Shown in pieces: positions 16,420 to 31,196 of a stretch of DNA of 64,000 nucleotides. The notes under the pieces are model-generated. The model searched no databases. It was not told where the DNA came from and saw only the letters and a program-made list of their open reading frames with translations. Made by a program: the position numbers and the translations under genes. Source of the DNA: Eledone cirrhosa (lineage: Eukaryota); assembly GCA_964016885.1 (NCBI GenBank), contig OZ024743.1, positions 30,628,001 to 30,692,000 of the forward strand, given 5' to 3'. Positions within the stretch are counted from its first letter, which is position 1; each line of letters starts with the position of its first letter.

Positions 16420-17362
16420 ATATGGCGAAGAAGTTTATGAAATGGAAATGCGGGTATAAAGAATGTATTAGGTAACAATTGTTTCTATAGTGTATGGGTT
16501 ACCTATACCTCGCTATTTTAATATAAAAATATCATCATAAACCGAAGGTACACTGTAAGGAAACACACCATGTTGTCAGACCTTTGTATTGGAATGATAT
16601 GAACATATTTTATACACTAGATAAAAGAGAAAGAAGGAGGTAGGAAGAGAAGGGGAAGAGGGAAGTGAGTAAGGTGGAGGGAGTCCTAGGATTTAAGACT
16701 GTCAGACTAGTAGAGATTGTAAGGAGAGAATGTTTTGGCAGCAGTTAGCTTAATGAGGCTTGTTAGGGTTGGCGGGGGAAGTAAATTCTTCTAGTGGTGT
16801 TGTTCGGACAAAATTTAGTTAACGCGGTGAAAGTGGTACAGAGTTACAGACAAGTTATTGGGGCTATTATAGTAGCAGGTTATTTCTAAAGGGGTCCAGA
16901 AAACAGTGTTTAGTACTATTATTATAGAAAGCCATATCTTGTGTATAAACATATAAAACAGAAATTTGCAAACGGTGGTGTAAAAAGGTAACATTATATG
17001 CATTTAAAAAAAGAAAAAGTCGTTTTCAAACGATGGTTACAGTATAGAGAACGTTCAATTTTGCTGTTCAAAAGTTTGTTTACCGACGTTAAAATGCATA
17101 ATTTGCAGAATCGATGAGTTTGCCTTATGCAGGCGCAGCTGCAATAATTTGCCAATCAAGGGAGAATGCTTGATTGTTCCTCCGGAGCTGCCAGGCTTTA
17201 TCGGCGAGGGTTGTTACGGAGCGCATTTTCTCGTGCCTGATCGAAGATCGATGTTGGTATAGGCGAGCTTTGAAAGAAGTTGCGGTACATCCGACGTAAT
17301 ACCATTTGTTGGTTCCGGAATTTATTGTACATCGGTAGACAATATTGCGTGCTAGGTACTGG

Positions 17363-17365
<3 letters not shown>
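16420..17365 (-). mobile_element. 5'-truncated Naiad-type PLE (GIY-YIG C-terminus + pLTR)
   Basis: NIVYRCTINSGTNKWYYVGCTATSFKARLYQH..TTLADKAW, similar to 7620-7800; degenerate HHR at about 16468-16545 (GAAACAATTGTT). Confidence 0.85.
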
Positions 17366-17402
<37 letters not shown>

Positions 17403-17410
17403 ATATATAT

Positions 17411-18240
17411 CTTTCCGGAAACACATAGGCAAATGCGGAAACAAAGACGGAAGGCCCATGGTCACAATTCTAGCGACAGAAAGAAACGTCGGCACGTTAC
17501 GTATCAAGGAAGCACTTTGGATCAAAAGCTTAGGGCCACAATTAAACAACCGATCCGAGAGAACCGAAATGAGGTGGTTGGTTTAAGTTAACAAACGAGG
17601 CAGCAACACACGCACACACACAAGCGAGACACCAACACACGCACACACACACACAGTAGCATTCCACCATACGAACATACTACACTGCCAATACAGAGGA
17701 ACAAGGCAACAACACACGCACACACACAACACAGTAACATTCAACAAACATGCAGAGAATGGACTGACAGCTAGCACCATCCCACTCCCACAATTGAAAG
17801 AACTACTTCGGCCGCTGACCTCTGCCTGACCGACCCCATTTAACGCGCACGCGCACTCTGATGAATACCTCAGATATTCAAATCAACAAACAGCGGAGGA
17901 CACGTTTCGCACCTTTCCGACAGACAACCTTTCCCCCACCCCTGAAAAAACCCCCAGTTGATGGATGTGAATCCGAAATATATAGGGACAATTGAATCTC
18001 TCCTTAGGTAACTCTTTCTCGTGTTGTTATTTTTAATTTTATCCTTTACCCTCTTTCCTTCATTCCTCTACACGTCTTATACACGCCACGCCTCTCAACG
18101 TACACCTACTTACATCTATCTCTACACCACCCCGGATCTTGTTACCCGGAGTTTTACCCATTTGCATTGTCGAGGCTTCCAAACGCCTTACAGAAATTTA
18201 CCTTATTATTCCACAATGATTCAAGCAAACTTCAATACTC
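17411..18240 (+). mobile_element. 5'-truncated PLE (GIY-YIG C-terminus 17413-17586 + pLTR)
   Basis: FRKHIGKC..VTILATERNVGTLRIKEALWIKSLGPQLNNRSE; degenerate HHR 17951-17987 (CAGTTGA..GAAAtataTAggg). Confidence 0.8.
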
Positions 18241-18341
18241 TCTTATATATATATATATATATATATTTCATCGTATTTTTGACTAAAGAAAATTTAGTCT
18301 GAAAATGCGGTTTAGTCAGATAAATGGAAAAAGATGAGTAT

Positions 18342-18415
18342 TGAGGTACATGGGAGTCGAACCCACATCTTTGGTTATCCAGACCACTGTGCTACGATTA
18401 CACCAACACATCACC
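18342..18415 (-). other. tRNA-derived sequence (SINE head or tRNA pseudogene)
   Basis: Minus strand: A box TGGTGTAATCGTAGCA, stem tggt/acca, T arm gtggGTTCGACTcccat; acceptor stem imperfect. Confidence 0.65.
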
Positions 18416-18648
18416 TATCTCCTTCCACTCAAATTAGAAGCTACATTCTTAGCGAGTATAAATGAGAAACATATATGATTTGAAACAGTGAGCAGGTTTG
18501 AAATTAGATTCCATTTATGTGAGGGTTCTAAACCCCATTTTCAGACTAAAATCTCTTTAGTAAAAAATACGGTGAAAGCTAATTTATTTTCTAATTTCAA
18601 ACCTGGTCACTGTTTCAAAACATACTAACTTGTCATATATATATATAA

Positions 18649-18710
<62 letters not shown>

Positions 18711-18777
18711 AAGGTTTAGTAAATTATGATAAAGTCTCAAAATAAATTTTAAAAAATTTACTTTACCTACTATAGTT

Positions 18778-18861
18778 ACCTTTACCGATCGGTTTCGAAT
18801 CCCAAAAATAAAACGGAGACCATACGGCCTTCGTTGCAAAGAGAGATTCTCGTCAGAAGGT
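18778..18861 (-). ncRNA. Type I hammerhead ribozyme (copy 1)
   Basis: acctt CTGACGA gaatct...ggattc GAAA ccgatcgg TA aaggt. Confidence 0.9.
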
Positions 18862-19260
18862 TCTTTTCATTCAAAGAATATAAAATTCCTGAATTAAAAT
18901 CACAAACTAGCGCTATCAAAAACTGTTCCTGGGATGAGAGTGGATGATGTAGAACAGGTTTATCAAGGGCCGTAGCAAAGATAGAGGCAAAAGGAGGTAG
19001 GTCAAACTAGCCACCGCTGTTGCCAGCAGCAGTCGGAATGATCCGGTTTGTTCTCAACGTTAGTGGAGGTAGTAGTAATATGAAATACGTCCCTTCACGC
19101 ACAAGGCGCCAAGGTACGCATGTATTGTCCAACCAAGTGCCAATGTGGTTCAATGGCGGGTTAATAAATTAACGAGCCAGAACAAATATAAACAAGGTTT
19201 AGTAAATAATGAAAAAGTTTCAAAATAAATTTTAAAAAATTGACTTTACCTACTATAGTT

Positions 19261-19344
19261 ACCTTTACCGATCGGTTTCGAATCCCAAAAATAAAACGGA
19301 GACCATACGGCCTTCGTTGCAAAGAGAGATTCTCGTCAGAAGGT
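19261..19344 (-). ncRNA. Type I hammerhead ribozyme (copy 2)
   Basis: Same core and helices as copy 1. Confidence 0.9.
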
Positions 19345-19729
19345 TCTTTTCATTCAAAGAATATAAAATCTTTGAATTAAAATCACAAACTAGCGCTATC
19401 AAAAACTGTTCCTGGGATGAGTGTGGATGATGTAGAACAGGTTTATCAAGGGCCGTAGCAAAGATAGAGGCAAAAGGAAGTAGGTCAAACTAGCCACCGC
19501 TGTTGCCAGCAGCAGTCGGAATGACCCGGTTTGTTCTCAACGTTAGTGGAGGTAGTAGTAATATGAAATACGTCCCTTCACGCACAAGGACTAAACCTTG
19601 TTTATATTTGTTCTGGCTCGTTAATTTATTAACCCGCATTGAACCACATTGGAACTTGGTTGGACAATACATGCGTACCTTGGTGCCTTGTGCGTGAAGG
19701 GACGTATTTCATATATATATAGAGAGAAA

Positions 19730-20055
19730 AAGAGATGAAATCGAAAATGCAACTGGAGTCTTATTTTTTTTTTTTTTTTTAAATATATATATTTATTTGG
19801 TTCCTTTACCGGTTTCGCAGTTCTTCTGCTTTTCAAAAGGTGAGTTGAGATGGAGGGTCTGTGGTTTTTCTCACATCCCACAGACCCTCCATCTCAACTC
19901 ACCTTTTGAAAAGCAGAACTGCGAAACCGGTAAAAAAAAAAAAAAAAAAAATACGACTCCAGTTGCATTTTCGATTTCATCCCTTTTTCTTTATACATTC
20001 ACTCGTGTAGGACACCTCGGTTATATTTCATTTTGTAAAAAAAACCTCACTTTCT
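19730..20055. repeat. Fold-back palindrome of a pLTR tail (related to 4385-4560 and 21545-21660)
   Basis: Arms about 19733-19863 and 19878-19982; HHR 3' half GAAACCGGTA only. Confidence 0.8.
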
Positions 20056-20077
20056 AATATATATATATATATATATA

Positions 20078-21475
20078 CACATTAATATATATGATAAACA
20101 CAAAACGTGTTTGCATTGTAACAGACAAAGTTAGCTATCTATGAAATAAACTAATTAAAGTGAATACAATTTGCCTGTCTCAATATAAGTCAATGAGGAC
20201 AAGCTTATATTGGCAAAGGCCGTGATTCCTGGACAAATTTAAATTTCAAAATATAAACCCGCTCCGTTGATGAATTTGAACTTCGAAACCCAAATATGTT
20301 TCGCAACGATGGTACATGAATTGAAAAATAAAGAGAATCGAAATGGAATTGAAATAAAAAGTGAAATATCCAAATCTTCTGTGCTTATCGACAGGAATCC
20401 AGTAAAATTAGTACATTTCACCATCAACAATTTTGCAGGTCTGACTACACATGTAGCCAGACCAAACTAGCCGTCCCGCATTCCCGGTGCTAGAAATAAC
20501 AGCCGTTTATGCGGGATTAAAGATCATCTCTACAGTTAAGGAGCAATATACTATATTATATTTTGACATTAAACTCTCAGTCGTTTACAATTAATAAGCT
20601 CCAAGAAAGGGTCATTTCCGAGCAGTTAAATACATTAATATATATGATAAACACAAAACGTGTTTGCATTGTAACAGACAAAGTTAGCTACAATGAAATA
20701 AACTAATTAAAGTGAATACAATTTGTCTGTCTCGATATAAGTCAATAAAGACAAGCTTTTATTGGCAAAGGCCGTGATTCCTGGACAAATTTAAATTTCA
20801 AAATCCAAACCCGCTCCGTAGATGAATTTGAACTGCATATTTAACTGCTCGGAAATGCCCCTTTCTTGGAGCTTATTAATTGTAAACGACTGAGAGTTTA
20901 ATGTCAAAATATAATATAGTATATTACTCCTTAACTGTAGAGCTGATCTTTAATACCGCATAAACGGCTGTTATTTCTAGCACCGGGAATGCGGGACGGC
21001 TAGTTTGGCCTGGCTACACACACGTATAGTCAGACCTGCAACATTTTTTATGGTGAAATGTACTAATTTTACTGGATTCCTGTCGATAAGCACAGAAGAT
21101 TTGGATATTTCACTTTTTATTTCAATTCCATTTCGATTCTCTTTATTTTTCAATTCATGTACCATCGTTGCGAAACATATTTGGGTTTCGAAGTTCAAAT
21201 TCATCTACGGAGCGGGTTTGGATTTTGAAATTTAAATATGTCCAGGAATCACGGCCTTTGCCAATATAAGCTTGTCTTTATTGACTTATATCGAGACAGA
21301 CAAATTGTATTCACTTTAATTAGTTTATTTCAGTGATAGCTAACTTTGTCTGTTACAATGCAAACACGTTTTGTGTTTATCATATATATTAATGTATTTA
21401 ACTGCTCGGAAATGCCCCTTTCTTGGAGCTTATTAATTGTAAACGACTGAGAGTTTAATCTCAAAATATATTATA

Positions 21476-21478
<3 letters not shown>
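20078..21478. repeat. ~555-bp monomer present as ~1.4 direct then ~1.15 inverted copies
   Basis: 20078-20631 repeats at 20632-20833; 20835-21478 is the reverse complement running through the unit junction; (TA)n on both sides. Confidence 0.9.
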
Positions 21479-21514
<36 letters not shown>

Positions 21515-27486: not shown

Positions 27487-30467
27487 TATGTATATATATA
27501 CGTATATATATAGAAAGAGAGATGTGCATGTGCGTTTGCTTATGCATATATGTATATTGAGTGTCTGTATATGTGAGAGAGGAAGAGAAATGGAAAGAAA
27601 GCGAAAGCAAGAGAAAGAACGCTGGATCGACCCAAATATGTATATGTTTAAGGCACACTGTAACTGTAATAATCAATGAAGCTAAAACTACACCGAGTCC
27701 GTTTCTATTAAATGTTAAATATCCTTGTCATTTTAGCAAATGAAATATTTCTTTTAATTTTGACTTAGAAACGTACAACCATTTCATATGTCAACATATA
27801 TAGAGGAAATAGTTATTTTCTTTGACGCTCCAATTTGAATCACATATTATGTGTTGCGTAAAATATTGAAACTGCTAGGCTAATTCTGACAGGTTCCACA
27901 TATTTTTAAGAGCAATGTAGTGCCGTATTTTTCTGTGTTATTGTGATCTCAAGAAGAGGTATGTAGATGGAATGCTATTTACGATTGAGCTAATATGTGA
28001 AGTATAATGTTGTGGGAATGGGATTAATATACCACAGAAATATCCCTAATATGCGGACAATATTTGGATTACATATTCAAAGCACAATCATGACTATTAG
28101 ATGGACACTATTTTGTAAAGTTTCCAAATCTGTATTGTGTGAAATATATGAAAAGAACAGATATTCTTGCATTTAGCTTACTTCCTCTCTTTTAGCTGTA
28201 CGAAATTCAACGAAATTCCAAGAGCTACAATGAAAAAGTAAAGGAAATTTAAGGTTATTACCTACTAATATGAAGAATTGCAAGCAAATGTTCATATATA
28301 CTCTATTGCAATTCTGAAGTAAATAACAACATGCAGCATTGATTTAAATTCACTTGAAACATTTTCTATAATTCCTGCAGCATGGGGCGAAGAATAGTCA
28401 AAATTATTCTTCACAAGTGCTTCATATCCTCAAACGAAATCATTTGATAAAATGACGTGTGTTCACGTGGATGTTAGATGACAAATACATTCTCAAATTT
28501 TCAAATACTACAGAGTTGCTATATCACTCGGTTGGAAAATATTTTTCTATATCATAGTAAAGTTTCAACGCTGTTTCTCTTACACGGTATCTCAATTTGC
28601 TAGAAAGACAAGGCACATTGTCTTTAAAGAAGATTCTGCTTAGATAAAAGAGAAATCCCAGAGGTGTTAATGGACATGTAGGTGAATCCTCTAAAATAAT
28701 GATGGATTTGGGTATCTAAAACTCTTTTGAATATTTCTAAGTTAGATCATGCCTGACTTAATTCAAAAACGGGTAAACCAGTTATTTATATATAGATAAA
28801 CAAGTTCACATTTATTACCAATCGAGTATGATAATATCTATGCGAAATTATAAGCAAACGGCATATTTGGTATAAAAGGAAGATACCAAATTTTTGTTTT
28901 GAAATATTGTCGCCATTCCTCCTTTACTACGAAAATAGAGATGCAAATTTCTTTTTTGATTATCCACTTTCCTGTAGAAATAGCATGTTTGAAATTTAAA
29001 TGTTGTAGTATAGTGTAATTGATTATTATAAACACAACCATACATTTAAGTGGTGAACATTAAAGGCATTTTAACATTTATCTTTCATAGTGATAATATA
29101 TGTTCGGGTTTATACAATACTATTAAGAAGATTTGTCCATATTCATCGAGATGTTTATAATCATTATTAATGCATTATGACATTCATCTAATGGGAAAAC
29201 AAAGCCCGTGATTCGAAATTTGAAAGATACCTTTTTAAAGAACCTAAAGCTAACAGAAGATTGCTGAGAATAAAACTAAAAGCGAGATTAGAGTAAACAA
29301 AGGAAGCATACGCCAATGTGTAGGAAATTATATTAAATCACATGCAAATTACTGCATTAAAGATTTAAACATTAAAATATTGCATAAAATATAAATGTAG
29401 CTGAGGATTTCTATTCATTACGCTTTCACAATCATTTCATTAATGAATTGGTGGTGAAACATAAACGAAATGGGATGTTGTTTATATTGACTCAAGAATT
29501 CTAGCTTCTGATACAAAGATCTAACTACATTTCTATTAGCTTATCAGGTATAATTTATTTCTTTATTTTATATTAATATATTTCACTAATATACTTTTTC
29601 AATGATTTAAAATTACATATATACGTGTTATATATAAACGTATAGCCACAAAACACAAACACCCTCCACCCATAATTATATGTGTATATATATATAGATA
29701 TATAGATATATACACAGACACAAACACACACATACATATATATATATAATATATTTATATAGTACAAAGAAAACGAAAAATCAGTGATGCATCTGGACTC
29801 AATTTATTCCGTATTACAATTGTTTCGCCGGCAGGTAGCTCGAGACATGATCCATGTATGGATCTGGCTGATTCTACGGCTGCAGGTTCCTTCATACAGG
29901 AGTAGTTCCTTCGGAGCAAATTTTATCACTGGGGGGTTATCATACAAAAACACCCTAAAAAAAACCTCTTCCACTCTTGTCATGCCATTGGCTGTTTTTA
30001 CCCCACGTCATCTTAAGTTCTGATCAGTATTTACTGCGACATGGGTCATCAGCCATTTTCTGTCGGACACACTTCAATGGAGTCATGCTGGGTCCAGTAT
30101 CTCACACGTCTGTTCACACTCCATAGTAAGCACCCACACATACGAATATACACACACATATACACACACAGGCAGACACAGACACATGCGTTTATAAACA
30201 TACATGCGTAGACACCCCCCTCCACACACATATACATATATGTATAATTACACAAAACAAGCTCTCCCTCACTTCCACGGACCCATTCATACCCACTTCT
30301 AGATACATACCGCCACAAGCCTTTTAACGGCTGCTTAAGTCGCGCCATATATCCGGTCCGAGAAGCATGGCCTACGCAAACATACACATATACACACACA
30401 TACGCGCGCACACGTAACTACGCACAATCTTATATACATTTATATATATACACTCATACACACACAC

Positions 30468-30534
<67 letters not shown>

Positions 30535-30762
30535 GAAACACACAGATACATGCGGACACACACATATACATGAATGCATCCGCACCCAACCGTGAGTTAA
30601 GGGTGCCAACTTCACCGATGTTGCTCAATGAATGACTGGGACAGACCAATCCGGTTGAACCAGACTGAACCAGTATCAGAGTTAAAAATACATTATGAAG
30701 AGAGAAGAAACATTTAGATATAATTAGTAATAAAATGTATCATACCTAAAGTGCTCCTAGAT

Positions 30763-30852
30763 TCCCCGACTACGTAGTTTCGTGGCATAAACAAAAACAA
30801 TACATCATAAAGATATAGAGTCCTTGCGAGGTCTGCCGACTTATCAAGAGTA
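30763..30852 (-). ncRNA. Type I hammerhead ribozyme with U3-A8 core covariation
   Basis: ctc TTGATAA gtcggca ...tgccac GAAA ctacgtag TC ggg. Confidence 0.65.
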
Positions 30853-31196
30853 TATCTCATTTTACTAGTCTCAAGAACGCGTCTACACGACGTGAGAAAG
30901 AATCTCAAAAGGCGGAGGGGGAGATAGTCACGCGATATAACGGTCGAGAAACAGAGCTAAGCCTCTTATAACCCCGAAGAAAATACCACGGAGGCTGAGG
31001 GGGTATTTATATCGAAGCCGTAGAAGAGGTGGTGAAGGAGTCGAGAAGTATGAGTAATGGAAGCTTTCCAGCAGTCCCTACACTTCAAAGATTGCTCGAC
31101 CAGAGGGAGTTATTAACAATATTAATTATATATATATATTATTTTTATATGAGTCCCTAGTGTCCGCGCATTGCCTGGAGACTTAGCTGAGAATAG

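Follow-up and report, generated by a model that had tools for sequence, protein, structure and literature searches.

A candidate type I hammerhead ribozyme with a U3-A8 core pair in a 593-nt retrozyme-like repeat of Eledone cirrhosa

The stretch of DNA analysed here, called the window (64,000 nucleotides), carries on its minus strand at 30759-30857 a motif which, to judge by its sequence, is probably a working or recently working type I hammerhead ribozyme of a Penelope-type retrozyme with an already known core variant. The hammerhead reading fits the family context of the motif, a test against chance, the strand that we infer to be the RNA sense strand, and a pile-up of the 5′ ends of insertion arms at the predicted cut site. 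The 593-nt repeat that holds the motif is of a class expected to carry type I hammerheads, and the motif lies on its presumed sense strand.

The motif and its repeat unit

The first-pass annotation had listed a core UUGAUAA, a G10.1-C11.1 pair, GAAA, the palindrome ACUACGUAGU and a GUC site. Every one of these elements was found, all on the minus strand, and in the window copy they are arranged as follows.

30759-30857, minus strand: type I hammerhead domain, from the helix I 5′ strand through the helix I 3′ strand
30848-30857, minus strand: helix I 5′ strand, with distal AGRU (30857-30854), a bulged A (30853) and proximal UCCUC (30852-30848)
30841-30847, minus strand: core strand U3 U4 G5 A6 U7 A8 A9 (UUGAUAA)
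30782-30840, minus strand: helix II, 59 nt, with G10.1 (30840) paired with C11.1 (30782)
30779-30781, minus strand: core G12 A13 A14, which together with A15.1 at 30778 reads GAAA
30769-30778, minus strand: helix III, the 10-nt palindrome ACUACGUAGU, based on sequence and pairing invariance
30768-30770, minus strand: GUC
30767-30768, minus strand: C17 (30768) and G1.1 (30767), with the predicted cut between them, based on sequence and genome-wide arm 5′ ends
30759-30767, minus strand: helix I 3′ strand, GAGGAAUCU in most copies

The conserved hammerhead letters U4, G5, A6, N7 and A9, G12, A13 and A14, and C17 (H17, not G) are all present. The position of the C3-G8 pair is taken by U3 and A8, which on the sequence are still Watson-Crick letters, of another kind. 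Three helices surround the core and helix I is open-ended, with 5+4 bp in helix I, 6 bp plus an extension in helix II and 3 bp in helix III in the majority copies. The majority helix I consists of UCCUC/GAGGA, a bulged A and four further pairs. Helix II runs from G10.1-C11.1 through U-A, a bulged C at 30838 and GGCA/UGCC into an extension made of an 8-bp and a 6-bp helix, and helix III has three pairs (A15.1-U16.1, C-G and U-A) around the 4-nt loop ACGU. Apart from the bulged A of helix I at 30853 and the bulged C of helix II at 30838, no loop-loop tertiary contact was identified.

Helix I had been put at about 3 bp. This holds for the window copy, in which only C-G, U.G and C-G form contiguous pairs, but the shortness is private to that decayed copy, most copies having 5+4 bp. 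The private changes are an A in place of the majority C at 30851 and a G in place of the majority A at 30766; 30855, a further position on the 5′ side of helix I, reads A in the window copy and G in most others. With its two private helix I changes the window copy is, by its sequence, probably a poorer ribozyme than the source copies of the family.

The motif belongs to a repeat whose features in the window are listed below. Unit coordinates (u) are given as 31123 minus the window position.

30526-31122, minus strand: one copy of the repeat, a 593-nt unit (30530-31122) plus 4 nt of TA overlap, with boundaries that recur at other loci
30460-30525, no strand: (AT)n microsatellite, the target site, at the sense-3′ end of the copy
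31123-31150, no strand: TA-rich flank at the sense-5′ end of the copy
30688, minus strand: unit position 435, one of two fixed sense-3′ ends elsewhere and internal in the window copy; a putative internal priming site

The window copy is exactly one turn of the 593-nt unit, which has a GC content of 0.42 and no long ORF and is thus non-coding. Elsewhere such units stand head to tail in tandem with a period of 591-595 nt, and in this they agree with the low-GC, non-coding character of retrozymes. The 18-mer CTCYTGATRAGTCGGCAG has 6,137 matches in the 3.0-Gb genome, which gives at least 6,137 copies, and a second 18-mer of the unit has 7,942. With a 201-nt query at least 41 matches were obtained, with identities of 94-100% except for one short fragment, among the best 40 of 339 candidates scored. 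Contigs from two other organisms span the unit at 30500-31150 with few differences; either the family is common to close relatives, or it is common to samples under different labels.

The insertion architecture was examined in a sample of 40 loci, picked by an anchor outside the hammerhead motif. The insertions, the window copy included, lie in TA microsatellites and occur as tandem and as tail-out inverted arms. Nearly all of the 62 arms have one of two sense-3′ ends, u435 in 30 and u597 in 29 (59/62). Tail-out arm pairs occur at 22 loci, and 20 of these pairs combine one u435 end with one u597 end. At 30688, which corresponds to u435, the loose ends of contigs read TATATA. Within a locus, array units and opposite arms are 0.4% apart, as against a mean of 2.65% between loci. 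Fixed 3′ ends, variable 5′ ends and tail-out arms are together what target-primed reverse transcription with twin priming would be expected to leave, and we interpret them in this way. Because the arm sense-3′ ends are fixed, the RNA sense strand would be the minus strand, which is the hammerhead strand.

Two further observations concern the outlines of the copies. Six of the 62 arm 5′ ends (L033-L072) fall at u19-38, which is 19-38 nt short of a full turn from u597, where about two would be expected. Exact one-turn arms such as the window copy exist too, and copying of a circular template could account for the ends at u19-38. Internal deletions have taken part of the hammerhead domain in some copies (L071:973-1097 and 722-979; L124; L126); the L071 deletion, from about u258 to u341, is bounded by short repeated words (ACTA).

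Conservation, folding and the chance of a look-alike

The non-canonical core could in principle have been the product of two chance transitions in one copy, in which case other copies would all read CUGAUGA. The family consensus of the other copies keeps UUGAUAA, and CUGAUGA was seen in none of those examined. TTGATAA is present in 35 of 35 copies of L002-L020, a few of them counted twice through the overlaps L003/L004 and L014/L017. Among the matches listed for CTCYTGATRAGTCGGCAG (100 of 6,137), 99 have TTGATAA and one has TTGATGA, and a genome search for a canonical-core version with the same flanks gave no match. The 63 full copies, found at 37 of the 40 anchor-sampled loci, all carry the motif, with private core changes only. 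Since UUGAUAA is kept in the examined copies, it is a feature of the family and not the outcome of two chance transitions.

An older subfamily (L042, L048 and L051), 88-93% identical to the window copy, has the core, the 6-bp helix II stem and helix III unchanged, and its differences lie in the flanks and the helix II extension. Its helix I differs by no more than a C/U exchange at 1.8, which preserves the pair, and a G-to-A at 1.4 that is private to L048. Relatives more diverged than the known copies were not found in a genome similarity search, of which the best-scoring candidates were dominated by near-identical copies. A 606-bp repeat of this genome that also has UUGAUAA (L093, C4:69137600-69141600) proved unrelated to the 593-nt unit, microsatellite sequence aside, and so offers no comparison for the family.

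Pairing was assessed in an alignment of 59 distinct sequences, made up of 58 distinct natural copies and the window copy. Paired cells amount to 98.6%, with unpaired cells in at most three sequences per pair. A15.1-U16.1 is present in 59 of 59 sequences and all three helix III pairs are invariant; G10.1-C11.1 is G-C in 56, G.U in one and unpaired in two. Every variant at a paired position that occurs in at least three of the 59 sequences preserves pairing, as an exchange between G-C and G.U or between A-U and G.U. The copies, which are 2-5% diverged, have 15 extra types of one-sided pair-preserving change, compared with 4-12 in slid-partner controls. Two-sided compensatory change was found at none of the pairs among the 59 sequences, which are 95-98% alike. 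The family is too young to display covariation, and a shuffle control on covariation is uninformative because the copies are so alike. The pair-preserving variants are consistent with the hammerhead fold and stop short of covariation proof. The earlier suggestion that the double change speaks for selection could not be substantiated, as no C3-G8 relative was found and the copies are without two-sided compensatory change.

Variants shared among loci are often A/G on the sense strand (30855, 30824, 30823, 30821, 30814 and 30803). Editing of the template RNA before reverse transcription could leave such an excess.

Energy calculations place the hammerhead fold near the minimum for a natural copy (L056:756-869; −25.7 versus −26.8 kcal/mol); for the window copy the values are −18.5 and −23.9 kcal/mol. 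Among three natural copies, the minimum-energy fold always includes the distal GGCA/UGCC stem together with the helix II extension, and in two of them (L056 and L051) helix I as well; an alternative small hairpin stands where helix III would be. The fold z-scores, between −0.6 and −1.45, are unremarkable. When two L056 copies are folded together, a 10-bp helix III is predicted to form via the palindrome, at −67.3 kcal/mol compared with 2 × −26.8 kcal/mol for the separate molecules.

A motif relaxed enough to admit a non-canonical core and a helix II of 59 nt will now and then turn up in a repeat by chance. The frequency of such look-alikes was estimated with a descriptor that demanded a C3-G8 or U3-A8 core, G10.1-C11.1, GAAA and H17; helix II could span up to 80 nt and hold one bulge but needed 4 bp or more, helix III needed 3 bp or more with U16.1 as its last base, and helix I a minimum of n bp. 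The descriptor matches a natural majority-type copy with a helix I of 5 bp. When 620 nt of L055 containing one unit were dinucleotide-shuffled 20,000 times, it matched none of the shuffled sequences. Over both strands of 300 shuffled windows it gave four matches with a helix I of at least 2 bp and two with at least 3 bp; the latter rate, taken over about 250,000 windows, corresponds to chance matches of the order of a thousand, and this, together with the lack of an Rfam match and of covariation, is what a look-alike has in its favour. It has against it the 0/20,000 result for shuffled units, the 5+4 bp of helix I in the majority, the position of the motif on an independently inferred sense strand in an element class known for type I hammerheads, the jump of arm 5′ ends at the predicted bond described below, and a sibling family that shares the build and has a canonical core. 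A chance origin thus appears the least probable of the explanations considered, and a very improbable one.

The real window gave three descriptor matches, the U3-A8 motif and two motifs with a canonical core. The latter two belong to a 483-nt repeat with the following features.

18703-19485, minus strand: about 1.6 tandem units of the 483-nt repeat
19637-19714: inverted arm of the 483-nt repeat
19266 and 18783, minus strand: A17 of the two sibling hammerheads

Tandem Repeats Finder reported nothing in 16500-21500, and a repeat search then revealed the 483-nt pair. The hammerhead of the 483-nt unit combines a CUGACGA core and GAAA with a 59-nt helix II, a helix I of 5 bp, a GUA site and the 10-nt palindrome ACCGAUCGGU. 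Its build is that of the U3-A8 motif, so the genome holds a class of long-helix-II hammerheads with a palindromic helix III. A tRNA-Ser (GGA) gene lies at 18341-18413 on the minus strand, about 290 nt past the end of the 483-nt array and on the same strand.

Rfam yielded no hammerhead match at the gathering level in the whole window and none at E ≤ 10 in 30500-31150, and other ribozyme classes were likewise without a match in the 593-nt unit at either level. The sibling hammerhead was not reported in the gathering-level search of the window either. The first-pass annotation had expected that standard motif searches would miss the family. Rfam indeed misses it, but probably mainly through the 59-nt helix II and not through the core; the miss says little about the core because the canonical-core sibling with the same long helix II was missed too. 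Matches resembling mir-297 and mir-466 were rejected as artefacts of a TA/CA microsatellite. Elsewhere in the genome the Rfam family Hammerhead_1 (RF00163) has 18 matches over the cut-off, in other repeat families, an example being CCUGAUGAGUCCUAAAUAGGACGAAACAUUGUC. Those copies resemble the present motif in being type I with a short helix III; they differ from it in that their core is canonical, their helix II compact and their helix III 2 bp long, and are without sequence similarity to the 593-nt unit.

Arm 5′ ends at the predicted cut site

If cut RNA is sometimes reverse-transcribed, arms should begin at G1.1, which is u356. Junctions were counted genome-wide at seven positions as two non-native bases followed by the native 16-19 letters, and the flanks of every match were inspected.

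u323: 5 junctions
u346: 3 junctions and 2 internal deletions
u355 (C17): 1 junction
u356 (G1.1): 20 matches, all junctions, 17 independent (4 are copies of one event)
u357: 16 matches, 15 independent (one duplicate)
u366: 11 matches, 10 junctions (one is a 1-nt insertion)
u403: 5 matches, 4 junctions (one abuts an assembly gap)

The count of 17 at u356 compares with a baseline mean of 3.25 on a background of 3-5 (Poisson P for at least 17, 7e-8), and the difference between u355 and u356, 1 versus 17, has a binomial p of 1.4e-4. Because their native letters are nearly identical, the patterns for u355, u356 and u357 have almost the same denominator. Since the commonest haplotype (GGAACA) is excluded by the pattern word for u356, the enrichment relative to u403 is a conservative one. 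That the numbers would step up at the scissile bond was foreseen from the hammerhead model before counting. Eighteen arms that start at G1.1 were mapped: seven end at the first u435 and seven at the first u597, these 14 being as short as a cut monomer allows, and the other four run on through an uncut site. The pile-up of 5′ ends extends about 10-20 nt downstream of the cut site. This spread and the four long arms leave room for two other explanations, stalling of the reverse transcriptase at the folded motif and a transcription start.

According to the first of these, the hammerhead is a relic that folds and no longer cuts; the family would have spread via uncut multimers, and the pile-up would reflect stalling of the reverse transcriptase at helix I and the palindromic helix III or dimer duplex. 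Stalling would suit the raised numbers of 5′ ends at u357 (15) and u366 (10) and a cluster at u365-376 in the 40-locus sample. It would not explain why the step from 1 (u355) to 17 (u356) falls exactly on the scissile bond, and a hairpin of 3 bp is a poor obstacle to a reverse transcriptase. The loss of cutting itself would be in line with the 25 of 62 arms that exceed one unit and pass through uncut sites, and with the poor in vitro cutting of Penelope-type minimal hammerheads described in the part of PMC4209133 used here, and is at odds with a core that is intact in the older subfamily (L042, L048, L051) as well. We consider a relic unlikely, and yet the most serious of the alternatives.

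A transcription start at u356 would make the arm 5′ ends true RNA 5′ ends in which the hammerhead-like motif upstream has no part. The end base is a G, and the four of 18 u356-starting arms that exceed one unit resemble read-through transcripts of a tandem array; the other 14 are no longer than a cut monomer allows. As the site was predicted beforehand, coincidence at the same base would have a chance of about 1 in 593, and no promoter was identified. We give this explanation little credence, only marginally more than a chance look-alike.

Under the hammerhead reading, multimeric minus-strand transcripts would be cut by the hammerhead, with self-cleavage predicted between C17 (30768) and G1.1 (30767) and U3-A8 replacing the usual C3-G8. 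From folding, cutting would likely take place as a dimer via the 10-nt palindromic helix III, and the unit-length RNA would likely be circularised. The architecture of the insertions suggests that cut, partly cut, uncut or circular RNAs are then copied into DNA by a Penelope-type reverse transcriptase, with priming presumably from both nicked target strands at two AU-rich unit sites, positions 435 and 597.

A wider proposition, for which we see the arguments on the two sides as evenly balanced, is that the insertions form a fossil map of 5′ ends in which the arms prefer the exact U3-A8 hammerhead bond. They would then provide the first in vivo evidence of natural cutting by a U3-A8 hammerhead with a very long helix II in an animal, and cut, partly cut and uncut or circular RNAs would all have served as templates for twin-primed Penelope-type reverse transcription from two fixed internal sites.

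Relation to known hammerheads and retrozymes

The exchange of the core pair has precedents. In several natural hammerheads C3-G8 is replaced, by covariation, with U3-A8, and activity in vitro has been shown for such ribozymes (Perreault et al. 2011, PMC3088659, in the part of that paper drawn on here). U3-A8 as a natural variant is already in print, in the portions consulted of both PMC3088659 and PMC4209133. Perreault et al. describe the same C3-G8 to U3-A8 change; neither the organisms with the variant nor a link to the 593-nt repeat family appear in the consulted part of PMC3088659. About 1,300 minimal hammerheads with U3-A8 have been tied to Penelope-like elements of Schistosoma mansoni, and Penelope-element hammerheads are described as having low in vitro activity and a probable action as dimers (Cervera and de la Pena 2014, PMC4209133, sections used here). 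Neither the U3-A8 swap nor the connection between hammerheads and Penelope elements is new.

Dimers are also known from the double hammerheads of newt satellite and viroid RNAs (Forster et al. 1988, as cited in the used parts of PMC4209133 and PMC7229834). The 593-nt motif shares with these a weak helix III and a palindromic loop, by which two motifs form one extended helix III; for the 593-nt motif, dimer action is a prediction from folding, unlike in those systems.

The Cercyon/Penelope hammerheads of S. mansoni, as presented in the sections of PMC4209133 used here, share with the present motif the type I topology, U3-A8 and the conserved G10.1-C11.1 pair, a helix II of 6 bp whose 5′ strand bears a bulged base, and a short palindromic helix III that suggests a dimer, and they too occur as tandem and inverted genomic copies. 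Compared with them, the 593-nt motif has a real 3-bp helix III with a 4-nt loop instead of an absent one, and its helix II has a further extension of about 45 nt. It also resides in a 593-nt unit without a long ORF, and the copies at the 40 loci are bare units or arms; the S. mansoni motif belongs to the repeat that flanks a coding element, and a Penelope-like element of that kind encodes a reverse transcriptase and a GIY-YIG nuclease.

Should the motif cut, the more than 6,000 copies of the family are sustained by a hammerhead whose core pair is U-A and whose helix II measures 59 nt. Surveys with Rfam-type models miss both the U3-A8 family and its canonical-core sibling, so that animal hammerheads would be undercounted. 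The most useful by-product of the analysis is the arm 5′-end record, which offers an RNA-free check of predicted ribozyme cut sites in any young retrozyme family. An insertion footprint with such a record was not found in the consulted text of PMC7229834 or of the preprint 10.64898/2026.07.22.740005, supplements aside, and the same text, again without supplements, makes no mention of U3-A8 or of cephalopods.

In overall organisation the 593-nt family also resembles the non-LTR retrozymes of animals, for which a circular RNA intermediate and dependence on Penelope-like elements have been proposed (Cervera and de la Pena 2020, PMC7229834; Li, Clavereau and Pollet 2026, 10.64898/2026.07.22.740005; both as far as their consulted text goes). 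According to the same portions of these sources, they have in common with the 593-nt family non-coding tandem repeats with a GC content below 45%, one type I hammerhead per unit and thousands of copies. The family described here, known from DNA, differs from their examples of 330-390 bp in its unit of 593 nt, its U3-A8 core and its very long helix II.
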